Source of the DNA: an uncultured virus (IMG/VR IMGVR_UViG_3300031565_000002)
Taxonomy: Duplodnaviria; Heunggongvirae; Uroviricota; Caudoviricetes
Virus record (IMG/VR): IMGVR_UViG_3300031565_000002
Length of the DNA stretch: 64,000 bases
Reading direction: 5' to 3' (one strand)
In this document: positions 2,828-61,246 of the stretch, piece by piece
Position numbering within the stretch: the stretch's first letter is position 1
How the letters are laid out: each line of letters opens with the position of its first letter
Translations under genes and position numbers: made by a program
Notes under the pieces: model-generated
Database searches by the model: none
What the model was told of the DNA's origin: nothing
Seen by the model: only the letters and a program-made list of their open reading frames with translations

Positions 2828-3020
2828 AAAAAGTAGGCATCCGTTTTGAAAATGCAATGTTTTACCAATTTGACCATCTCCCCATAATTAGAGATACTAT
2901 TATATATCCCTAATGGAGGGGAGACGAGGAATCGAACCTCGAATGGGCTTGCGCCCACTTCATTTACGGTGAAGTGTCTTTACCATGTATGCATCAAAGG
3001 TCGAAGACGCTCTACTTTTT
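2828..3020 (-). ncRNA. scaffold repeat copy 1 carrying circularly permuted tRNA(GTA)
   Basis: tRNA 3' part 2984-2914 ending CCA precedes 30-nt hairpin linker and 5' part 2883-2860; flanked by conserved complementary arms. Confidence 0.8.
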
Positions 3021-3049
3021 ATTTCAAAGATCAAAATTTTATATAAAAA

Positions 3050-3191
3050 AGGTGGTCATCCATTTTGAAAATGCAAGTTTTTTGTATACTAATTGGGAAT
3101 TGAACCCAAGACAGATCGATTCATAGTCGATTGCTCTACCAACTGAGCTATAAGCATTATGTATGCATTAAAGGTCGAAGACGCTCCACCT
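3050..3191 (-). ncRNA. scaffold repeat copy 2 carrying non-permuted tRNA-like (ATG anticodon, no CCA)
   Basis: Same arms; insert 3157-3085 has D, anticodon and T arms and a weak acceptor stem. Confidence 0.75.
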
Positions 3192-3219: not shown

Positions 3220-3398
3220 AAAAAGCAGGCATCCGTTTTGAAAATGCAATTTTTTTATTAAGCTTTTCCCCCATAATCAAGGGTACTATTAAGTACCATT
3301 GATGGTGGGGGAACAGGGAATTGAACCCCGAATCTTTTGGTTATGATCCAAATGCTTGACCTATGTATGCATTAAAGGTCGAAGACGCTCTGCTTTTT
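3220..3398 (-). ncRNA. scaffold repeat copy 3 carrying circularly permuted tRNA(CAT)
   Basis: 3' part 3361-3303 ending CCA, linker 3302-3273, 5' part GGGGGAAAAGCTTAAT 3272-3257. Confidence 0.8.
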
Positions 3399-4028: not shown

Positions 4029-4062
4029 AAAAAAAGCCCTACTTCTTTCGAGGCAGGGCTTT
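4029..4062 (-). terminator. attenuator terminator 1
   Basis: AAAGCCCTGCCTC-GAAA-GAAGTAGGGCTTTTTTT; 5' arm also complementary to GGGCAGGG in the leader. Confidence 0.85.
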
Positions 4063-4092
4063 CAGGTCTTATTTATGTGTAGTATTCTCTAC

Positions 4093-4218
4093 TTATCCAC
4101 TTTGACCTTTCACCCTGCCCATCACGAGACTAAAATCTGAGCGCAATGATGTCCATAACATATCCGAATAATGGATATGCGTCAGACTACATATTGCTAG
4201 GGTTTTGAAAGGATTCAT
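4093..4218 (-). CDS. leader peptide 1 MNPFKTLAICSLTHIHYSDMLWTSLRSDFSLVMGRVKGQSG
   Basis: Hand translation; GGAG upstream; overlaps antiterminator; not in ORF track. Confidence 0.7.
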   Translation of the reverse strand: MNPFKTLAICSLTHIHYSDMLWTSLRSDFSLVMGRVKGQSG

Positions 4219-4264: not shown

Positions 4265-4384
4265 ATTCTATACGTTTTATCAATGCAAGATGAGGTGCTA
4301 GTTTGCACCCCGATATACTGAATCATTTTGCTGTGACACAAATTGTTTTATATATGTATGCATCAAAGGTCGAGTACAGAATTT
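4265..4384 (-). ncRNA. scaffold repeat copy 4 with non-tRNA hairpin payload
   Basis: TCGACCTTTGATGCATACATA ... TTGCATTGATAAAACG arms, outer stem ATTCT/AGAAT. Confidence 0.6.
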
Positions 4385-14277: not shown

Positions 14278-15422
14278 ATACAGATCCTTCCTTTAGATTA
14301 AAAAAACATTACTTACAACGGGAATAAACAAAATTCCCACTTTCTACTTCCTTTTCATTTCCCTATAAAGTTTTACCCAATATGGATCATCAAAATATCT
14401 TTCATGAGGATACGTTGTCGAATTACTGTGAGGAATATCACCAAACCAACCTTTTCCATCCTTATTAAAACTCCATACATCTGAAATCTCCCTCATGACG
14501 GGAAATATTTCTTCATGAGGATATTTCTTAACTAAATTCTTTATTCTATGACGAAGGGCTCTATTGGCAAGCCTCTTGTCATCCTTCTCACTACGTCCAC
14601 CATGACCAATAATAGTGGTTTTCCTGTAAGATTTACCCATTTGACAATCTCCTGTTAGATTATCACATTGGGCACCTCCCTTCAATAATTAATATATTGG
14701 TCATATTCATTTCCTATCAAGCACATGGGGACTTCGCTTTCACCCCTTCTATATCACTTACATAAATAAAATTATCTTCACCCCATTTTTTTATTAATTT
14801 CTTCGTCGCAATCTGTCTCTCAAATCTTCCGTGCCATTGTCCACCTTTACTCGACTTCGAACCATCGTTGAATTCTGAGGGCATACACTGTGAACAGAGA
14901 GCCTTTTTATCACGATCCTTATCCTTATAAAAACCCTGCCCCCTTGTCCAATAATGACCACAAGCAGTATTCTCTACAACTTTACATTCATCACATACAA
15001 ATAAGGGCATTTACTTCCTTTCATCCCAATAACTTTTAGGCACATCATTTAAATTAATCTTATCAACCGACAAATCATTCATATTAACTCTCTCAATAAT
15101 CACACCATCGAGCCAGGGAGCAATTAATTTATACTGCTTCTGCTTGTCATTCTTAAAAATAACCTTGCAATACTCAGTTTTTGTAACTCCATATTTCTGA
15201 TCCCACGTTACTTGATAAACGAGAATTGAGTCCTCGATAAGAATACTTTTGTACTCTTCCCATTCGCCCTTCTCTATTTGTATTGTATCTGCTATCTTAA
15301 TATTAGAAAGATTAATTCCTCGATTAGCATTCCATGTAACCAAAATAATTATAGCCAATATACAGGTAATAACAATAAGTGTTATCGTGGTGCTTTTCTT
15401 CATCGTATCCCCTTTCAAAAAA

Positions 15423-15498
15423 TGGCTGGGATGGCAGGGGTCAAACCTGCGACCTCCGCATCCAGAGTGCGGCGTTCTGTCAACTGAACTACATCCCA
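15423..15498 (-). tRNA. tRNA-Gln(CTG)
   Basis: U1-A72, loop CTCTGGA, G73, CCA. Confidence 0.88.
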
Positions 15499-19463: not shown

Positions 19464-19469
19464 ATATAG

Positions 19470-19740
19470 AATCAGTGGGGGGATTCGAACCCATCACCAA
19501 TAATCTACTTCTCTGTCTTACTAACTTAATCTACTAAATATGAATCAACTATAAAGCCTGTCCAGACCTTCCTCTGGCTCACGTTTTTTTGAGCTTGCGC
19601 CCATGCCATGTTGCTTTACAATATAAAACATACCTTTTGAATAACTTTTCCAACAGTCTTTCGATTATCAACGATTTCTCCGCACCAGGAACCAAATGGC
19701 ATGTGCGCTGTCCTGTGCTCTACCGCTGAGCTACACTGAT
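19470..19740 (-). ncRNA. tRNA-like RNA with ~190-nt insertion
   Basis: Acceptor ATCAGTG/CACTGAT, D arm and TTCGAAT T loop flank a long insert. Confidence 0.65.
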
Positions 19741-20507: not shown

Positions 20508-20540
20508 AAAAAAAGCCTTCTCTTTTTCAAGAGGAGGCTT
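20508..20540 (-). terminator. attenuator terminator 2
   Basis: AAGCCTCCTCTT-GAAA-AAGAGAAGGCTTTTTTT. Confidence 0.85.
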
Positions 20541-20596
20541 CTTATCTTTTTGTACTTTTATCTATTTTAGGTCAGTTTTAAGATAAAGAATCCCCC

Positions 20597-20665
20597 TCAC
20601 AGTCCAGGTTTCTGTACTGGTTGCGGCTTTACGACAAGCACGGGTTTTCTAATTATAACTGACAT
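20597..20665 (-). CDS. leader peptide 2 MSVIIRKPVLVVKPQPVQKPGL
   Basis: GGAG RBS; stop codon overlaps antiterminator; not in ORF track. Confidence 0.8.
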   Translation of the reverse strand: MSVIIRKPVLVVKPQPVQKPGL

Positions 20666-20706
20666 CACTTCTCCATTTTAATAAATAACTATTCCTAATC
20701 TATCTT

Positions 20707-20735
20707 AATATAACACGAAATACTAAAAAAGTCAA
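20707..20735 (-). promoter_or_regulatory. sigma70-type promoter
   Basis: TTGACT-17 nt-TATATT. Confidence 0.8.
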
Positions 20736-22061
20736 CAACTTTATGAAATTATTTTTATCCGTTATTTAATTACTTTATTTTCATCTTTAAAAATATCGTA
20801 TATTTCTCTTGGTCTCACATAAATCTTCCTTAAAGACCCTTCCTTACCACATTTTTTACAATCACCATATACAGCAAAAGGGCTTTTATTGTATTCAGTA
20901 CGCTTTTTCAACTTATTTGCACAAGACATACACACACCATGATAATGCTTCTTTACCGTAGATCTTCTTCCTACATCAACACACTTCGTCCCTGCTGGCT
21001 TACCGCATATCTGACAAATATCATCCCAATTACCACTATCACTTTCATCGTGCTCTTTTAATTTATTAAGTTTTACGGCACATACTGAGCATATCATCTT
21101 ACGCATTATTATCTCTCACAGCATCTAATCTCTCTTTATTCTTATCTTTTTCGTTACATACATCACTATCTATATTTTCCTTCTTTATCTTTGGCTTTCT
21201 GGGACACCAACTAGGGACATTGCATTCTTTTTTGGTGTGATGCGGCCTACAACCACACGTTATGACCTTATCGTTTTTAGCCTTACATACTACCTTAACA
21301 TCATCATCACAAAACCAATCGTAAGGATCTGGATCAGACAAAACTTTATGCTCTGGACATTCAGTACAATTACTAACTTCAAAATTTATTATCATTTCAG
21401 CCCCTTTATCCTAAATCCCCTCACGGGCCTATCCTCATCCTTCCGATATAATCTCATAGCCTTCGCAACATCAACAAAATCTTTATCTAACATTTCAATT
21501 TCTTTTCTTAATTTCTCGATACTTTTATTGTACTGATCCATGTCAGCACTCCGCTGATTTTGAAAATTATTACGCTCATTATGAATAAACTCTTTAAATT
21601 TGCCTATCGCTTCATCTCTTTTAACTATTTCATCAAGGAATAAATCATCCGCTGCTTCTTTATCTTTCAAAACCCTAACTATTCTTTTGCTATGCTCACT
21701 AATCATAGTATTTGCTGCAGATAAATCTATCTGCAATCTTTCCTTATCTAACGATAATTCTCTACAATCATTCTTTAACTCATTAATTCGATCATCGAGT
21801 AATACTATAGTATGCCCTTTAGAAGTTACAAGAACATCTCTTTGGTCAACTTCAGAAACTAATATCGAAAGTTTACTCTCATATTCAGACTCCCTAAAAT
21901 GAAGCATACCATCAACATTAACTTCCCAAATAAATACTTTATTCAATTTAAATGAATAATATCTCTCATCATTACCTATGGTGGTTATTTTGCACCAATT
22001 TACAAAAAACCAATGATAAGCACCATCAGGAGAACTTTTAAAAAGAAACGGAAATACCTTC

Positions 22062-22499
22062 CTAAACCAACCCATGTTCATCCCTTATCCCCTGTCTAAC
22101 TAACATTAAAATTATTCCTAAATTATTGCGCCCATTTTCAAGCTTCCCGCACACACCCCAAAAATTATCTCCATGAAAATTAATCTCAACTATTTCTTCA
22201 TTGCCAGTATGAAGCAACTTTCTTCTTAATTCTGGGATCCTGAACTTCAACATCACAATATCGGTCATGATACCAACTTTTATATCGTCCCAATTAGGAC
22301 GAAGAACCAATTCGTGACCTTTTCTTTTTGCTGCACTTGCACCCTTTGCATAAGAAATAGCAATTCTATTTTCTACGGATGTCGTCTTGGATGCTTGAAA
22401 TGCATGTTCAACTGTAGGGTATTGAATACCTTCATATTCAATTATAGAAGGAGAAAAATTAGACAAGAAATAATATTCCCCACGAAAAGTGCCTATCAT
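22062..22499 (-). CDS. NADAR (YbiA-like) family protein
   Basis: FLSNF, YPTVEHAFQASK, LRPNWD, D.FWG, G.N.LG..LM. Confidence 0.92.
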   Translation of the reverse strand: MIGTFRGEYYFLSNFSPSIIEYEGIQYPTVEHAFQASKTTSVENRIAISYAKGASAAKRKGHELVLRPNWDDIKVGIMTDIVMLKFRIPELRRKLLHTGNEEIVEINFHGDNFWGVCGKLENGRNNLGIILMLVRQGIRDEHGLV

Positions 22500-29005: not shown

Positions 29006-29080
29006 TGGTACGCCCGAGAGGACTTGAACCCCCGACGCGCAGATCTAGAATCTACCGTTCTGCCACTGAACTACAGGCGC
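29006..29080 (-). tRNA. amber suppressor tRNA (CTA anticodon)
   Basis: Stem GTAGA/TCTGC closing loop TTCTAGA; complete cloverleaf with CCA. Confidence 0.85.
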
Positions 29081-35067: not shown

Positions 35068-36828
35068 CTATCTATAAAAAGAATCTTCTACTTTCGGCTT
35101 ATTGACTCTCCATTGCTTTACCTGGTATTCAGGATATCTTCTGGCTGCATTACCATTCCATGATGCGACCACTATCCTTTTTTCGGTATCTACTTCATTA
35201 ACTAATACAGAGTGCACAACCTTATGCCTAATGGTCGTATTTCCCATTCTCTGAGAAGTAACTGTCCATAAGGTCTGTCCAGGCTTAATACGATCAAAGA
35301 TTGCCATCATTTCCTCCCATTTCCTCTATCTCCCTTACAGCGTTATACAAAACTTCCCCTGCCTCATTCAATGCTTTCCTTGCCAAACATTCTGGACATT
35401 TCTGATATGGTGACGAATCATCACAATCACCTTCACAATTATCCATATCTGCATATTTATCTAAAAATTCAATTCTCTCTGCAAAATTCATACTTTACCA
35501 ATCATAATCAGTTAAATCAATATCTTCTCCACACGTACATTTAACTTTAGATATTTCACCTAACGATGTAGGCGTAAAAGAAAATGTGAGCCTGCCACCA
35601 ATAGCCCCCTGCTTCATAGGATCCCCAAAAGCACATCTTCCCTTATGCTCTTCATCCCATTCTTTAAACTTTTTCAATTGTTCTTTGTCAAGACTAAAAC
35701 TCATATTATTCTTCCTTCATTTTAACTTTTGCTTCTGTAACTATACGATAAACAGGAAATGATACTGTTTTAAATTTATCTTGAGAAAAATCTAAAACCC
35801 TAAATTTCTTATCATCACAAAATCTCAAATCTGCTATATATCCTGTACTATCCCTTGTAATCCTGATATCACTAAACGCTATTTCTTCCCTGTCTATATC
35901 TTGTTCCTTAAACAACCACACATTATTAAATGAATCTACGACCAGTCTACTTGCCCATGCAGTATCCCCGATATCAATATCACTAGCAATGCTAAATCTA
36001 TCAATATATTTTTCAGGCAACTTTTCATAACAGGCAATTAACTGATCTAGTACAATTATACTGTCAGCCGGTTCAACTTTAAGATTATTTTTAATTTCTA
36101 CTTGAGATTTATCACAAAAAGACCAACACATCGCGATAATAACCAAAACAGTCATCACCGACAAAAATCTCGTACTAAACATCGATACCTCCTACTCATC
36201 GGTTACTTCTTCTGTTTTTACCCCTTCTTTTTCATTCTCCATGTCATGTACAGCCATAAGACTCAACGTCAACAAAACAATCATACAAAGAATAATAATT
36301 ATTCTTGTCATCGGTGAATCAATATTAGGAATCATTTTTAACTCCTTAAAACGTTAATGCGCTTCGTTATAATAATTTATATACTCATCGATCCCAAAGG
36401 TCTGTTCACAGTTAGGGCAGTCCATATCAGAAGTATCTGCTTTAACTTTAAACTCATACTCACACCCAGGGCACTTTGCATCTTTAAGCCCAGCCTCACA
36501 ATCACAGCCCATTGTTACCTTACCAATAGGTTTAGGTTTCCTTACATCCATCCTTACCCCTCTTTCTACTATCTCTCGACAGTCCTTACGAAAGTCAAAA
36601 AACTTTTAATAAATTTCTTTTGAATCTTGCCTTTTTCATCATAAGCGTCTACGGGGCACATATCATCCAATTGTTCAAGTTCATGCGCCATAAATTCAAC
36701 ATACCACTCATTCCCCTGTCTATCTTTCACAATACTCATCAAATTTTCTAAAGGATCTCTACCACGAAAACAAGTAATCTTATGATTCCCCAATTTACAT
36801 GTCATACCCATCTCCAAATAAAGGTAAA

Positions 36829-37381: not shown

Positions 37382-37410
37382 AAAAAAGCCCCATCTTTTG
37401 GATAGGGCTC
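37382..37410 (-). terminator. attenuator terminator 3
   Basis: AGCCCTATC-CAAAA-GATGGGGCTTTTTT; antiterminator GGGCTCA near 37430-37436. Confidence 0.82.
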
Positions 37411-37440
37411 ATTAATCGAATACAACATTTGAGCCCAATT

Positions 37441-37506
37441 TTAGGGTATACCTTCTCCCTCTCTATTATCATTCCGTTCAAACCTATTATTTATTAAGTG
37501 CTTCAT
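37441..37506 (-). CDS. leader peptide 3 MKHLINNRFERNDNREGEGIP
   Basis: AAGGAAG upstream; hand translation; not in ORF track. Confidence 0.78.
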   Translation of the reverse strand: MKHLINNRFERNDNREGEGIP

Positions 37507-37611: not shown

Positions 37612-37684
37612 TGGAGCGGAGGGGGCTTGAACCCCTGACCTCAACGCTGCCAGCGTCGCGCTCTCCCAACTGAGCTACCGTCCC
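37612..37684 (-). tRNA. tRNA-Ala(GGC)
   Basis: G3-U70, loop CTGGCAG. Confidence 0.9.
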
Positions 37685-37918
37685 TTAATTTCTAAAATGT
37701 TTTTCATCATACCTTGCTACTTCGTTCCATATCACCCATGATTCCTTGCCAATTTCCATAGCTGTTTCATTTACCATTCGCATAATTCTCTTCTTTTCTT
37801 CGTCGTCTCTGATGCCCCAATCTCGTAAAAGCAATTCGGTAATTCCCATTATACCAGTTAATTTGTTATTGATTCGGTGGAGACTGTCCATTACATTTCT
37901 AGCAGCATCTTCTTTCAT
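37685..37918 (-). CDS. stand-alone HisKA-like helical protein
   Basis: LHRINNKLTGIMGITELL resembles an H-box. Confidence 0.45.
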   Translation of the reverse strand: MKEDAARNVMDSLHRINNKLTGIMGITELLLRDWGIRDDEEKKRIMRMVNETAMEIGKESWVIWNEVARYDEKHFRN

Positions 37919-37995
37919 CTCTCACCTGCCTGCTAAATGTTTATGTTTGTACTTACAACAGGCACTTACATCTGGTTAATTATATTTATCCTTTC

Positions 37996-38071
37996 TGGTG
38001 GAGCGAGGGGGGATCGAACCCCCGACCTCAACGTTGCGAACGTTGCGCTCTCCCAACTGAGCTACCGTCCC
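37996..38071 (-). tRNA. tRNA-Ala(CGC)
   Basis: G3-U70, loop TTCGCAA, CCA. Confidence 0.92.
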
Positions 38072-38074
38072 ATA

Positions 38075-38150
38075 TGGTGGAGCGGAGGGGGCTTGAACCC
38101 CTGACCTGTTGGTTGCAAACCAACTGCTCTCCCAACTGAGCTACCGTCCC
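38075..38150 (-). tRNA. tRNA-Ala(TGC)
   Basis: G3-U70, loop TTTGCAA, CCA. Confidence 0.9.
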
Positions 38151-38472: not shown

Positions 38473-39390
38473 CTATTTTAAATATTCGTATTCTACTTGA
38501 TTGGCTATTGCCTCTCCAAGGCTTCGATAATCATCAATATACTTAACCTTGTCCATCTTCTCTAACTTACTATTTATCAAACAATCAACCCTATTAAAAC
38601 TATAATTCTGTATCGCTTGCGACATATCATTTGCCAATCTCACCCTACTTGAAAGGGACATAACCCTTCCTAAACCGCCATCTATAGGGTCGGCATAAAA
38701 CAGTAAATCTGACGCATTTCCACCCTTCTTTGCCTTCTTAAAAGACATTCCCCGAAAACAATGTCCCGCTCCAAGCGACAATATATGAACCTTATTGGTT
38801 TTATCTACTGCCTTTTGAAGCCATCCTTGCCGAATTGTCTCAGTAACAGTTTCACCTAAAGGACAATTCTCATTACCGGTTCCACCATCAAGCCAAACCT
38901 GTTCAGATTCTTTGTCTACAATATGCCCGAAGTACAATGGTGCAGCGAAACTTCTGGCAATAGCATCTATTAATTTAATTTTACCATCTTTCTTTTCCCA
39001 CCCCTTAAAGAAGTGAGTTCTACCGTCAACCTTGCTAGCAGAAGTACACATAAACTTTGTAACGCAATCAGACATTAATACATCAGCGCCAACATGTTCA
39101 CTAAAAAATTCTATAAACGGTTCTCTGCTGTATTTAGGCTGCACCAATGGGATTCTCAATCTCCACTTGAACACGTCCGGAAGAACTTTTAACATAAGTT
39201 CTTCTAATCGAGTTGCATCTATCTTACCGGATGCAAGTGCTCCACAGATTATAGCACCGATGCTAGTCCCAACCATCAAGTCAAAGATCTCGTAAATTGG
39301 CTTCCCTAATAACTGTTCAATCTCCTTTAAAACTGTCATAGGGATAACTCCCTTTACGCCACCGCCATCTACTTCTAGTATCCTAATCAC
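38473..39390 (-). CDS. patatin-like phospholipase
   Basis: DGGGVKG, GTSIG, AAPLYF, DGG. Confidence 0.92.
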   Translation of the reverse strand: MIRILEVDGGGVKGVIPMTVLKEIEQLLGKPIYEIFDLMVGTSIGAIICGALASGKIDATRLEELMLKVLPDVFKWRLRIPLVQPKYSREPFIEFFSEHVGADVLMSDCVTKFMCTSASKVDGRTHFFKGWEKKDGKIKLIDAIARSFAAPLYFGHIVDKESEQVWLDGGTGNENCPLGETVTETIRQGWLQKAVDKTNKVHILSLGAGHCFRGMSFKKAKKGGNASDLLFYADPIDGGLGRVMSLSSRVRLANDMSQAIQNYSFNRVDCLINSKLEKMDKVKYIDDYRSLGEAIANQVEYEYLK

Positions 39391-39421
39391 CGATACCCCC
39401 TGATATAATGTTAAAAGGTAA

Positions 39422-39498
39422 TGGTTGGGGTGGGCAGAATTGAACTGCCGACGCCTCGGTTATCAGCCGAGTCCTCTAACCAACTGAGGTACACCCCA
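39422..39498 (-). tRNA. tRNA-Ile(GAT)
   Basis: Loop CTGATAA, CCA. Confidence 0.9.
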
Positions 39499-39591
39499 AT
39501 AACATTATTACACTTTATTTTATATCAAAGAACTATCGTGTTTTCATAATAGGGGTGGGGGGAGTTGAACCCGCCCACTGACACGGCTTAT

Positions 39592-40219
39592 CTTACCACC
39601 ATAGCTTTCGCTACCATTTCTGTTTGTGGTCTGGACTTTCCCTTGACCATATTTTCAAGAACTTAGGCCCCTCCCGTCAAGTCTCTACACCTTCCATTTT
39701 TCAGGATTGGCTCGGGATTGCCATCAGCATCACCTGTTAAAGTTTCCCCGAATTTGAGAGGTTCTACTTTCTACGTTTCCATAGAAGCACTCATATTTTA
39801 ACAACCCAATCAACAAGGAGGTTGTCTTTTGCCCATTTAACCTTACTCGACTGATTATTTAAAGGAAAATCTATACGAAGTACCATCGTTCCCTTTGGTG
39901 CTTCATTAATGTCTATAGTATAATATTCATCATTTTCATAACAATAAACGATAAAAACATCTATAAGACCATCGTAATATTTTTTATAACTTCCTTTCGT
40001 ATTAACCCTTGACGAGCATGTATTAAAGGCTACACAACCATTACCATCCAGCCTTCCTGTTTTACATTGAACTCTAAAAAACTTATGAGTTCCATCTACT
40101 AATAAATCATATGGCTGATTATCGCCAACAGGAACACTAACAACCTTACCAAGTTCCATTAGCCTAGTGATTATCTTCTGTTCGGTTAATTCTCCTTTTA
40201 CTTTTGGATTATTATTCAT
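39592..40219 (-). mobile_element. group I intron (IC3-like) with homing endonuclease ORF
   Basis: Core motifs AAATTCGGGGAAAC, AATCCCGAGCC, GTAGAGACTTGACGG, AAGGGAAAGTCC; U at 5' splice site, terminal G. Confidence 0.88.
39791..40219 (-). CDS. intron-encoded PD-(D/E)XK endonuclease (I-Ssp6803I-like)
   Basis: KGELTE, P.GDNQPYDL, RVQCKTG. Confidence 0.88.
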   Translation of the reverse strand: MNNNPKVKGELTEQKIITRLMELGKVVSVPVGDNQPYDLLVDGTHKFFRVQCKTGRLDGNGCVAFNTCSSRVNTKGSYKKYYDGLIDVFIVYCYENDEYYTIDINEAPKGTMVLRIDFPLNNQSSKVKWAKDNLLVDWVVKI

Positions 40220-40356
40220 AAGACCGCCGCTCTAACCTCACATGAGCTACACCCCCATAAATTGGAATATACAGCCACATATTCGACCATCGAATACACA
40301 ACTCACCAAACTTACTGAATGTAGCACAAATCTCATTTTCATCTCCATTTTGACAT

Positions 40357-40392
40357 AAAAAAAACTCTGTCGGGTTTTGCCTGACAGAGTTT
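40357..40392 (-). terminator. attenuator terminator 4
   Basis: AAACTCTGTCAGG-CAAAA-CCCGACAGAGTTTTTTTT; antiterminator GCCTGACAAGAG 40420-40409. Confidence 0.85.
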
Positions 40393-40424
40393 AAAATTCA
40401 TGTTTAGTCTCTTGTCAGGCCGCA

Positions 40425-40505
40425 CTATCCTCCGCCTTCTGCATTAATAGCAGCTTCATCTATAATATTAGTGCTTCTTATTATCCTGACAGTTGTTGCT
40501 AACAT
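40425..40505 (-). CDS. leader peptide 4 MLATTVRIIRSTNIIDEAAINAEGGG
   Basis: GAGGA RBS; hand translation; not in ORF track. Confidence 0.78.
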   Translation of the reverse strand: MLATTVRIIRSTNIIDEAAINAEGGG

Positions 40506-40611
40506 AAAAAGTTAATCCTCGTTTAAATCCTAGTTTAATACCTTACTTAACTATTTTACTATTATGGTTTAAAATATCGGTATTAAACCAAAAAAGTTTA
40601 TTGTTGTTCCT

Positions 40612-40640
40612 AATATACCCCTAAAACCCAAAAAAGTCAA
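40612..40640 (-). promoter_or_regulatory. sigma70-type promoter
   Basis: TTGACT-17 nt-TATATT. Confidence 0.78.
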
Positions 40641-40941
40641 CAACTTTTTAAAATTATTTTTACGGTTCATCAATAAGAGCTTTATCTTTATCGTTAATAC
40701 TATTTATAAATTTATCATTTTCAACATGATAAATTATAAATTTTACCTTACCATACCTTCTATTGGCCTCAGAAAGAGCAATCGCATGATCATCAAATAC
40801 CCCCTCTATTCTTGCCTTGCGTATCAGTAAGTACTTATTAAGATACTTCTCCAAAAATTCTTCTTCATGTTCCCGTATCCACTTTAGGTTCCTATTCGCA
40901 TCACGTGCCATAACTATCCTCCTTTTGATAAATGGAAGTTA

Positions 40942-59645: not shown

Positions 59646-60056
59646 CTAAAATTTGACGTATTTAGCATACCCCAATTCTACTAATTGATCGTTCAAATTA
59701 ATTTCAGGCTCTTCAACATTGTCATCATCCTTAAAATAAAAAATCTCAACTATAAACCTGCCATACTTACCGGTTCTATCCTTCTTAGTCTGAATAGAAA
59801 TGGTTTTGCCAGACAATATATCTGCAACAAACTGCTTAGCTTCCAATCCCTTTTCTTTGTCCTCTGGGGTTGTCCCTTTTACAAGACGAGTCTCATATGC
59901 ATCGATGCGTGCCAATCTCAATCTTTGAGTTATCTTAACTCCAAAACCTAAATCAACATCAACGTCAATAGTGTCTCCATCGACAACCCTCTTTACTACA
60001 GCATTATAATCATACATATACCATCTGCTACTTTCTAAGTGCTCATTACTGAACAT
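59646..60056 (-). CDS. thermonuclease (SNase-like)
   Basis: VVDGDTID, RLARIDAYE, GKYGR, N..LV..GYA; real start probably MYDY. Confidence 0.9.
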   Translation of the reverse strand: MFSNEHLESSRWYMYDYNAVVKRVVDGDTIDVDVDLGFGVKITQRLRLARIDAYETRLVKGTTPEDKEKGLEAKQFVADILSGKTISIQTKKDRTGKYGRFIVEIFYFKDDDNVEEPEINLNDQLVELGYAKYVKF

Positions 60057-61246
60057 TCTGAAATTCCTACTTCTTCCAAGGCAGTTTCGTTTGTCCCAAT
60101 TGAGGACGGATAAACCAGAGCTTCCTTGTCCATAGGCGTTAATTCGGGATTAACCATCCCTATTTTATTAAGACCATAGTTCTTTAAATTTATTGAAGCA
60201 TTCAGGTCACGGTCTATAACCTGGCCACAATTTTCACAAATAAATTCCCTTTCGGAAAGTAATAGCTCTGCCTTTACATAACCACAACCCGAACAAGTCT
60301 TAGAAGAAGGAAACCACCTATCCGCAACGATTAGTGTATTCCCATAAAGAACTGATTTATATTCAAGTTGTCTACGAAATTCACCAAAACCTAAATCAGA
60401 AATACTTAAAGCTAATTTATGATTCTTCAGCATTCCTGAGACATTCAGGTCCTCAATCACTATAATCTGATAATTATTACAAAGATAAGTAGTAAGTTTA
60501 TCGAGGATGTCTTTCCTTAGACAGGCAATTTCATAATGAACTTTAGCTACTTTTCGATTAGCCTTATGCCTGTTAGAAGATCCCTTAATTTTTCTCGATG
60601 CCCATCTCTGTAATAATTTAAGCTTACCTAAACGCCTGCGTAAAGGATTGACAGACACTATCACTTTCCTGTCACTTAAAGTAGCCAGTGTTTTAATTCC
60701 AAGATCAACACCTACAACTGCTTGGTTATCACAAATAGTAGAATTAATCTCAGTTTGAACACTAATCACTATGAACCAATAATCTGCTTTTCTTCTGACT
60801 ACAGCAGACATTATTTTCCCGGCAAATCTTAAGGGTTCTGCCCCTTTGACCCATCCGAGTTTAGGTATCCTGAATTTATTTTCTTCTACTGAAAATTTAT
60901 CATTTGAGATGTAAAAAGAGTCTCTTCTACCCTTTTTCTTAAATACAGGATATTTATTTTGATATTTAAAGAATCTTCCAAAAGCTGCCTGAAGATTAGT
61001 AAAAGGTTGTTGGTTAGCGTCTTTATTTGTCTCAGACATCCAAGGAAATTTAATTTTCTTTTCTTTATTAAATTGTTTTTTAATTTCTAAGATATTAGGT
61101 TTTAAACCTTCTTCTTTTAACCTTTGATACTCAGAGAGGCCATAGTTATAAGCAACTCGGGCACAGCCACACGCTTTCCTGAAGAAGGTTTCGTGCCCTT
61201 TAGTAGGGTAGAGACGAATAGTATGCACTAAATTTAAAATGCTCAT
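60035..61246 (-). mobile_element. tnpB: TnpB RNA-guided nuclease, IS200/IS605-family element without tnpA
   Basis: IRLYP HTH, GVDLGIK, IEDL, SSKTCSGCG, DRDLNASIN. Confidence 0.92.

Follow-up and report, generated by a model that had tools for sequence, protein, structure and literature searches.

When phages switch on their tRNA genes, by what means, and what large phages gain from having so many of them are largely open questions. A 64,000-nucleotide stretch of DNA from an uncultured virus (Caudoviricetes; IMG/VR IMGVR_UViG_3300031565_000002), referred to here as the window, raises them in a concrete form. On its minus strand, between positions 40640 and 40357, a promoter, a short open reading frame (ORF) and an intrinsic terminator stand in front of a series of tRNA genes. 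What does this 40.4-kb unit do? Its sequence suggests that it is a working ribosome-mediated (leader-peptide) transcription attenuator that gates a phage tRNA operon, and the probability of this reading is put at about three in four. In other words, termination at the end of the leader would be conditional, and the outcome would decide whether the tRNA genes behind it are transcribed.

Anatomy of the 40.4-kb leader

A first-pass annotation, made from the letters alone, had proposed a full attenuator layout with the alternative pairings 1:2, 2:3 and 3:4 at 40640-40357. All the elements that it named were found on the minus strand at the coordinates it gave, and the leader has all sequence features of a ribosome-mediated attenuator:

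40612-40664, minus strand: promoter, with an A/T-rich upstream tract, a -35 box TTGACT (40640-40635), a 17-nt spacer and a -10 box TATATT (40617-40612)
40528-40593, minus strand: 66-nt hairpin in the 5' untranslated region (minimum free energy -15.7 kcal/mol, z = -2.2, equalled by 6 of 200 shuffles)
40516-40520, minus strand: Shine-Dalgarno-like GAGGA, 10 nt upstream of the ATG
40425-40505, minus strand: leader ORF of 26 codons plus TAG (40427-40425), MLATTVRIIRSTNIIDEAAINAEGGG
40469-40492, minus strand: segment 1, comprising CTGTCAGG at 40492-40485 (codons 5-7) and the inner strand GCACTA at 40474-40469
40409-40427, minus strand: segment 2, comprising TAGTGC, which contains the stop codon, and GGCCTGACAAGAG; it pairs with segment 1 or segment 3
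40357-40389, minus strand: intrinsic terminator, comprising segment 3 CTCTGTCAGGC (40389-40379), a loop, segment 4 CCCGACAGAG (hairpin 40389-40365) and eight T (40364-40357)

The promoter matches a sigma-70-like consensus at 10 of 12 positions. The ATG of the leader ORF lies at 40505, about 100 nt downstream of the promoter. The predicted duplex of GAGGA with the anti-Shine-Dalgarno sequence (-5.9 kcal/mol) compares with medians of -5.6 kcal/mol for 39 long ORFs and -3.3 kcal/mol for random positions.

The core of the layout is a word, GCCTGACA (40420-40413), that begins 4 nt past the stop codon. Its complement, CTGTCAGG, occurs twice, once in the ORF and once in the terminator 5' arm. Consequently the three pairing words named in the first-pass annotation, all of which were located, form mutually exclusive structures. 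Segment 1 pairs with segment 2 in the minimum free energy fold, and the duplex energies are -16.2 (1:2), -18.8 (2:3) and -16.6 (3:4) kcal/mol. The terminator is a CTCTGTCAGG-CAAAA-CCCGACAGAG hairpin followed by eight T. Its stem has 10 bp with one mismatch, the hairpin has an energy of -11.5 kcal/mol, and TTTTTTTT follows it. As a whole, the leader folds with z = -3.4 relative to its shuffles. The terminator ends 100 nt ahead of the first tRNA gene.

The tRNA genes behind the terminator

The genes that follow the leader are, in order, tRNA-Ile(TAT), tRNA-Ile(GAT), a patatin-like gene, two small ORFs and three tRNA-Ala genes. The tRNA genes of this first block lie at the following positions:

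39548-40256, minus strand: tRNA-Ile(TAT), split by an intron (exon 1, 40256-40220; intron, 40219-39592; exon 2, 39591 to ~39548)
39422-39498, minus strand: tRNA-Ile(GAT), called by ARAGORN and Rfam
37612-38150, minus strand: tRNA-Ala(TGC) at 38150-38075, tRNA-Ala(CGC) at 38071-37996 and tRNA-Ala(GGC) at 37684-37612, called by ARAGORN and Rfam

These are the five species that had been predicted to match the leader. Four of them are called directly by ARAGORN, and tRNA-Ile(TAT) is recovered only once a group I intron is removed. The 5' half of this gene begins with GGGGGTGTAGCTC at 40256, and its anticodon loop is broken after U34 by the 628-nt intron, which Rfam recognizes as Intron_gpI at 36.5 bits (E 2.5e-7, under the gathering score). 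The intron carries an ORF (40219-39791) for a PD-(D/E)XK homing endonuclease (PF11645, E 1.8e-33) whose ATG coincides with the first bases of the intron. The unspliced gene was missed by the ARAGORN and Rfam tRNA scans, and splicing in silico at the canonical junctions (after a U and after a G) yields a tRNA-Ile(tat) call by ARAGORN.

Four leaders in one window

Besides the 40.4-kb unit, the window holds three further units of this kind, also on the minus strand:

37382-37506, minus strand: 37.5-kb unit (attenuator 3 of the first-pass annotation), with ORF 37506-37441 MKHLINNRFERNDNREGEGIP, antiterminator strand GGGCTCA at ~37436-37430, and terminator 37408-37388 plus a T-run
20508-20742, minus strand: 20.6-kb unit, with -35 box 20735-20730, -10 box 20712-20707, ORF 20665-20597 MSVIIRKPVLVVKPQPVQKPGL and terminator 20538-20515
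4029-4218, minus strand: 4.2-kb unit, the fourth and weaker, with ORF 4218-4093 (41 codons) and terminator 4059-4036

A block is defined here as the tRNAs between successive leader terminators. Block II, behind the 37.5-kb leader, consists of Asp, Glu, Gly, Glu, Asn, Asn, Met, Gly, an amber suppressor, Glu, four Arg and Gly. Behind the 20.6-kb unit lie ten tRNAs, as far as 10415, that are exclusively Lys, Val, Pro and Gln. The block behind the 4.2-kb unit consists of Phe, Ser, Ser, His, Tyr, Asp, His, Leu, Met, Leu and Cys.

The promoter region connects two of the units. An 18-mer, AAAGTTGTTGACTTTTTT, has exactly two copies in the window, at 40647-40630 and 20742-20725, and each heads a leader unit. 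The two units are near-identical around the 18-mer and diverge past the -10 box, so that an alignment of them is conserved there alone. On the other hand, a consensus scan found no promoter between the tRNA-Ala at 37612 and the start of the 37.5-kb leader. The window thus appears to carry two operons, each with the order promoter, attenuator, block, attenuator, block.

Each leader is written in the amino acids of its own block

If the leaders act as test peptides, their codons should be those of the tRNAs behind them. Residue-level P values were calculated against the proteome background, and codon-level P values were obtained with wobble rules from 20,000 random ORFs drawn from the codon usage of the phage. 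In the 40.4-kb leader, 9 of 25 residues belong to block I (P = 0.0027); its five Ile codons are, as had been noted before, ATA (three) and ATT (two), and the four Ala codons are GCA (two) and GCT (two). In-set residues make up 13 of 20 in the 37.5-kb leader (set D, E, G, N, R, M; P = 0.0044), 14 of 21 in the 20.6-kb leader (P = 1e-5) and 21 of 40 in the 4.2-kb leader (P = 0.023). None of the 12 off-diagonal combinations of leader and block was significant. Among 454 small ATG-initiated ORFs on both strands, 4, 2, 1 and 37 reached the values of the 40.4-, 37.5-, 20.6- and 4.2-kb leaders, respectively. The joint statistic was reached by 0 of 200,000 random quadruples of small ORFs, and the true assignment of leaders to blocks ranked first among the 24 permutations. 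The enrichment of the 37.5-kb leader for the block that follows it, together with its lack of a consensus promoter, bears out the earlier proposal that it lies in series behind the 40.4-kb leader.

The match extends to codons. Block I tRNAs can read nine of the 25 codons of the 40.4-kb leader (P = 0.008, against a simulated mean of 3.7), and with the tRNAs of block II added the number rises to 19 (P = 0.002), including all 14 in codons 13-26. Codons 7-10 read AGG ATA ATA AGA. The 20.6-kb leader samples all nine anticodon species of its own block (P = 0.0008), the 4.2-kb leader all 11 (P = 0.0014) and the 37.5-kb leader 9 of 11 (P = 0.016). The Arg codons of the 37.5-kb leader are exactly AGG, CGG and AGA, those of the three Arg tRNA species in its block. 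Finally, the ORF frame outscores the other five frames in three of five leader-set pairs (the 40.4-kb leader being scored twice).

Could the 40.4-kb unit instead be a small independent gene whose product is a peptide of 26 residues or an RNA of ~245 nt, expressed from its own promoter and ended by a constitutive terminator? The codon match and the pairings would then be coincidental, and the tRNAs would be transcribed from elsewhere. Such a gene would account for a promoter and a strong terminator that bracket the unit and for a block I enrichment that is modest and matched by one antisense frame, and 100 nt with a weak promoter-like stretch do separate the terminator from the tRNA. However, no promoter with at least 9 of 12 matches lies between 40357 and 40256, and the same promoter heads the 20.6-kb unit, whose ORF matches a different block. 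Coincidence would also have to explain the random quadruples and the permutation rank, the occurrence of antiterminators at leader terminators only among the terminators tested, and the recurrence of the design in a second phage, LR756501 (both described below). An independent gene is therefore considered unlikely.

A second alternative accepts a true leader-peptide attenuator but gives it a general signal, such as amino-acid starvation or translation capacity after host shut-off, with the block match mirroring the amino-acid use of the phage. Classical attenuators read charged-tRNA levels, which are set by amino acids as well as by tRNA, and the mixture of seven in-set amino acids in the 40.4-kb leader is compatible with a general sensor. 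What argues against it is that the amino-acid sets of the four leaders in this one genome hardly overlap, and each is the set of the block behind it. Furthermore, the nine anticodon species sampled by the 20.6-kb leader include those of codons that the phage seldom uses (CCC, 9%; GTC, 7%), and the exact set of Arg codons in the 37.5-kb leader is not what a general signal predicts. This alternative, too, appears improbable, and a block-specific attenuator is preferred.

Antiterminators and modelled ribosomes

An attenuator needs a competing structure that disrupts the terminator. The minus strand of the window has 17 terminator-like hairpins, of which 8 were inspected and 7 tested for an antiterminator; ten were left out as weak or as lying in tRNAs or ORFs (63686, 62135, 59845, 53603, 47901, 31437, 23328, 17942, 14093 and 12940). 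The test compared the best duplex of the terminator 5' arm with the 93 nt upstream against 500 dinucleotide shuffles. The observed duplex was reached by 3 of 500 shuffles at 40.4 kb, 3 at 37.5 kb, 6 at 20.6 kb and 2 at 4.2 kb. The control terminators lacked an antiterminator, the observed value being reached by 54 of 500 shuffles at 2.7 kb, 455 at 6.9 kb and 496 at a gene end at 51.7 kb. The first of these controls, the terminator at 2736-2721, has a short ORF ahead of it and was considered as a further unit; it was not counted, as its antiterminator is not above chance. The 2:3 duplex of the 37.5-kb unit has an energy of -14.0 kcal/mol.

The position of the antiterminator strand relative to the ORF is also that of an attenuator. 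It starts at, or at most 6 bases past, the leader stop codon in the 40.4-, 37.5- and 20.6-kb units, and it falls within the last ORF codons in the 4.2-kb unit. This placement bears on a further alternative, in which no ribosome takes part and uncharged tRNA (as in a T-box) or a protein binds the leader RNA directly. T-boxes and protein-dependent attenuators also act through alternative terminator and antiterminator structures, and a 66-nt hairpin does stand ahead of the ORF. This hairpin was seen in the full leader fold and is missing from the aligned 20-kb unit. However, a cmscan search of 39300-40700 at E values up to 10 returned no Rfam leader family or T-box, just the tRNA, the group I intron and chance-level matches. 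A ribosome-free switch would also leave unexplained why segment 2 abuts a stop codon in three units and lies inside the ORF end in the fourth, and why the composition signal singles out the ORF frame in three of five leader-set pairs. A ribosome-free switch is thus very improbable.

How would a translating ribosome change the fold? In models that combine equilibrium folding with a masked ribosome footprint, the 40.4-kb leader formed the terminator when no ribosome was present or when the ribosome was at the stop codon. A ribosome masked at codon 8 or 9 (ATA ATA) gave the antiterminator without the terminator, and a stall at codon 15 also favoured the antiterminator. The 37.5-kb unit responded to the modelled ribosome in the same way. 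In the 20.6-kb unit the terminator won in every equilibrium model; in classical attenuators the terminator likewise wins at equilibrium, and the choice is kinetic.

A model for ribosome-mediated control

The proposed mechanism is as follows. RNA polymerase would start at the sigma-70-like promoter (40640-40612) and transcribe the 26-codon ORF. A leading ribosome that reaches the TAG would cover segment 2, so that the 3:4 hairpin and its U8 tract form and transcription stops ~100 nt before tRNA-Ile(TAT). A ribosome stalled inside the ORF would mask segment 1 and leave segment 2 free to form the 2:3 antiterminator. The best-placed stall site would be the two consecutive ATA codons between AGG and AGA (codons 7-10), and another candidate is the run NIIDEAAINAEGGG. 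With 2:3 formed, polymerase would proceed into tRNA-Ile(TAT), tRNA-Ile(GAT), the patatin-like gene and the three tRNA-Ala genes, and would next meet the 37.5-kb attenuator that gates the Asp/Glu/Gly/Asn/Arg block.

The signal in this model is slow decoding of codons that the downstream tRNAs read, which would amount to negative feedback on the supply of phage tRNA. In other words, slow decoding of their codons would probably lead the phage to make more of these tRNAs. The demand of the phage fits the feedback reading, because ATA makes up 43% of Ile codons and AGA plus AGG 76% of Arg codons in the long ORFs of the window, and the leader has AGG, ATA, ATA and AGA in a row.

A broader version of this model is about an even bet. 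Huge phages may run a modular, codon-resolved homeostat of their own tRNA supply, in which an amino-acid-sorted block is transcribed only upon a stall on a test peptide that covers its codons, often with all its anticodon species, and, in this phage, two identical promoters each feed two serial attenuators. The first leader could then open the path to both blocks, and the second only to the distal one. What such a homeostat would sense is depletion of host tRNAs, caused by host shut-off, anticodon nucleases or a misfit with AT-rich codons, and the missing tRNAs would be switched on.

Points that weigh against attenuation

Several observations count against the attenuator reading. The first concerns translation of the leader and its setting. 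At 10 nt the Shine-Dalgarno spacing is long, and a pairing energy similar to that of GAGGA is reached at about one in four random positions. Furthermore, attenuation would require a host that couples transcription and translation. No orthologue of the 40.4-kb leader in which conservation or stem covariation could be compared was found.

The second concerns composition. The block I match of the 40.4-kb leader is modest on its own, as one antisense frame equals its score (9/24), and the 4.2-kb unit is not frame-specific, since an antisense frame scores 22/39 and beats the leader. The 40.4-kb leader has codons for four of the five block I anticodon species (P = 0.17); GCG, for tRNA-Ala(CGC), is absent. 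Six of its 25 codons (TTA, ACA, ACT twice, GTC and AGC) are unread by any tRNA of blocks I and II, and four of these six fall within or next to segment 1, the region in which a stall would be most effective. Three of the unread codons are Thr codons, and the earlier remark that they lack a matching tRNA was borne out: ARAGORN, and Rfam at its gathering score, found no tRNA-Thr in the window.

The third concerns nesting. The first-pass annotation had read the Arg, Asn, Asp, Glu and Gly codons of the 40.4-kb leader as a match to block II and as a sign of nested control. These codons are present, but their share (10/25) is at chance when taken alone (expected 8.5, P = 0.33). Nested control is plausible from the run of 14 readable codons and is not established, given this share and a second operon whose first leader lacks block IV codons (4/21) and so shows no nesting.

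The fourth concerns the folding models. In the equilibrium models of the 40.4-kb leader, a ribosome stalled at codon 14 or 20 leaves the terminator in place. In addition, when segment 4 has yet to be transcribed, 2:3 pairs even without a ribosome, and the default state of the leader would therefore depend on kinetics.

Relatives and a similar design in other phages

Sequence searches for relatives returned none in which the leaders could be compared. A 308-aa neighbour protein gave seven pattern matches and no relatives in IMG/VR. The promoter 18-mer was found there at 25 loci, none of them with a tRNA. With the ribonucleotide reductase (RNR) of the window, IMG/VR gave three relatives among 41 stretches (61%, 58% and 33% identity), and none of the three loci had tRNAs. 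In metagenome contigs the count was 13 of 153 stretches (best identity 61%), and tRNAs were absent from all four of the 13 loci that were checked. Genome contigs gave 30 of 104 stretches, from bacterial genomes or metagenome-assembled genomes, with 24-33% identity over long matches and 42% for one short piece. Searches of GenBank phages with the leader region matched the intron core and tRNAs only, with nothing over the leader itself. The patatin-like gene found matches only in Wolbachia phage WO and one huge phage (27-35%).

The intron core led to a more informative genome. It matches LR756501, an uncultured phage of 735 kb with an RNR that shares 32% identity with the RNR of the window. The 40 kb around the match (170287-210492, reverse complement) hold 35 tRNAs in amino-acid-sorted blocks and 14 terminator-like hairpins. 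Four of these hairpins lie just upstream of a tRNA block, and each of the four is preceded by a common promoter-like motif and a short ORF. Within the reverse complement of that region, the units lie at 2918-3144, 15336-15465, 21988-22105 and 36279-36404, and their leaders and blocks are:

leader MLQTSKHSKHFSSSSKWF..., followed by Trp, His, His, Phe, Lys, Ser, Lys, one tRNA of unclear anticodon, Trp, Lys and Lys
leader MNNILHINLLNSLCLLGIKLIG, followed by five tRNA-Leu
leader MKNMVRKYNDYCINDKLKMLIG, followed by Ile, Cys, Ile, Asp, three Asn, Ile, Tyr, Asp and Asp
leader MNFRIINMIQEQMQQIQNLIGGTISY, followed by Met, three Gln, three Met and Ile(tat)

The P values for each leader with its own block are 8e-4, 6e-4, 0.051 and 9e-6, the first unit being scored from an internal ATG at 3002 that was chosen after the sequence was seen, and the true assignment ranked first among 24. 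The antiterminators were reached by 1, 3, 36 and 11 of 500 shuffles, compared with 172, 76 and 163 for three control terminators. The units therefore resemble those of the window in having a common promoter, a short ORF in the amino acids of the following block, an antiterminator that overlaps the ORF end, and a terminator. They have no sequence similarity to the units of the window. A terminator and an ORF ending in ..LIG are common to three of the four LR756501 units, whereas the units of the window share the promoter only. LR756501 thus serves as an independent replicate of the design.

A weaker candidate is present in Atu_ph07, a cultured Agrobacterium jumbo phage. A 42-codon ORF, MTNPMQPTTEIIAIERNVFVRAEAAMFWYPISGSDSHTGDKR, and a terminator (1755-1934 in the reverse complement of 331000-341000) precede the main tRNA block (Ala, Arg, Phe, Pro, Ile, Tyr, Trp, Met and Glu). 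In-set residues number 23 of 41 (P = 0.036), with 19 in the best 22-residue window, and the antiterminator was reached by 17 of 500 shuffles. Atu_ph07 is thus a possible laboratory model of the candidate design.

The arrangement was not seen in two further sequences. By the criteria used, T5 has no terminators inside its tRNA cluster, the only two found being at 39.7 kb. No such arrangement was seen in a 202-kb viral contig (G001) with 28-29 tRNAs, whose RNR is 58% identical to that of the window; its tRNA strand shows only three terminator-like hairpins, all of them weak (-7.1 to -8.2 kcal/mol). The design is therefore not universal.

Comparison with known attenuators

Leaders that sense more than one amino acid are known from enterobacteria, including thrL (Thr and Ile) and the ilvGMEDA leader (Leu, Val and Ile), next to trpL, hisL, leuL and pheL. 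The 40.4-kb unit resembles these leaders in its promoter-proximal short ORF of regulatory codons, its 1:2, 2:3 and 3:4 pairings, its terminator before the first gene, its stop codon that would let a finishing ribosome cover segment 2, and the sensing of more than one amino acid per leader. It differs in that the targets are tRNA genes and a few phage proteins rather than biosynthetic enzymes, in that the phage leader, instead of repeating one or two amino acids, samples up to seven of them and single anticodon species, and in that two serial attenuators stand behind one promoter. Like the E. coli pheST leader, it would attenuate a component of the decoding apparatus via its own cognate codons, with feedback on charged-tRNA supply. 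However, the target of pheST is a synthetase and one amino acid is sensed, whereas the phage targets are tRNAs in blocks. T-box riboswitches also choose between terminator and antiterminator according to the state of a specific tRNA, but they bind uncharged tRNA directly, without an ORF, and regulate synthetase or amino-acid genes.

To our knowledge, all described ribosome-mediated attenuators regulate amino-acid biosynthesis or synthetase genes, and we know of no earlier case in which tRNA transcription follows the decoding speed of cognate codons. The mechanism itself is known (trp/thr-type attenuation). What appears to be new is the tRNA-gene target, the block-matched leaders of several amino acids and the wiring in series. 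A search of the openly accessible literature found no description of leader-peptide attenuation of tRNA genes. The main text of PMC7162821 has no occurrence of attenuat, leader or terminator, and PMC2965389 has none of tRNA gene, tRNA operon or phage. If the attenuator reading is correct, it would represent a direct supply-and-demand feedback on the translation apparatus and would account for the sorting of tRNA genes into amino-acid blocks in these phages. Such leaders would be compact natural sensors of codon-specific translation speed, and their sequence signature can be used to annotate operons of this kind.

Genomic context and further observations

The window is AT-rich (36% G+C). It carries 40 tRNA genes, all on the minus strand and mixed among minus-strand ORFs. 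The ORF products include RNR, dUTPase, a helicase, HNH and PD-(D/E)XK endonucleases, and a TnpB-like gene product. The closest RNRs are those of viral contigs in IMG/VR (58-61% identity), and among GenBank phages those of uncultured phages of 642-735 kb (~32%). On this basis, the window is read as a portion of a large, so far undescribed phage. The TnpB/IS605 OrfB-like ORF (60035-61246, minus strand) has 403 aa and a Cas12f-like TNB domain.

The stretch is present in six DNA runs from soil metagenomes, and no RNA run containing it is listed. Contig pieces are listed for four of the soil runs; most of the long ones are identical to the window, and one has two differences. Variants in these contigs lie in tRNAs and in the intron core, and most likely they come from tRNA genes and introns of other organisms. 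The contigs thus show no population variation in the leaders, and the six soil runs are clonal. In contigs of all four of these runs, a 52-base joint that goes back 19804 positions connects the 20.6- and 40.4-kb units (20706 and 40509); most likely it reflects the repeated promoter common to both.

Stop codons and the amber-suppressor tRNA are a separate matter. The suppressor (anticodon CTA, 29006-29080, minus strand) is a member of block II. TAG terminates 19 of 65 long ORFs in the window, and recoding is not obvious. Read-through of TAG would fuse two ORF pairs in frame, at 9784-8306 and 17891-16674 (minus strand). The stop codon of the 40.4-kb leader is TAG, with an in-frame TAA six codons downstream.

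Some tRNA-like features are unusual. ARAGORN calls a tRNA-His with the unusual anticodon ATG at 3084-3157 (minus strand), next to an ordinary tRNA-His(GTG) at 2006-2082. Relaxed ARAGORN settings gave mainly noise. Six T-arm-like motifs lie outside the called tRNAs (~34737, 34660, 19491, 17148, 3327 and 2938, minus strand) and may represent fragmentary or unusually interrupted tRNAs. With introns allowed, ARAGORN calls one of them, at 19469-19740, and Infernal returned no more than a 25-bit partial tRNA, at 3314-3370. A repeated word, CGACCTTT(G/A)ATGCATACAT, occurs near the motifs at 3327 and 2938 (near 3380 and 3040), and a third copy lies near 4370.

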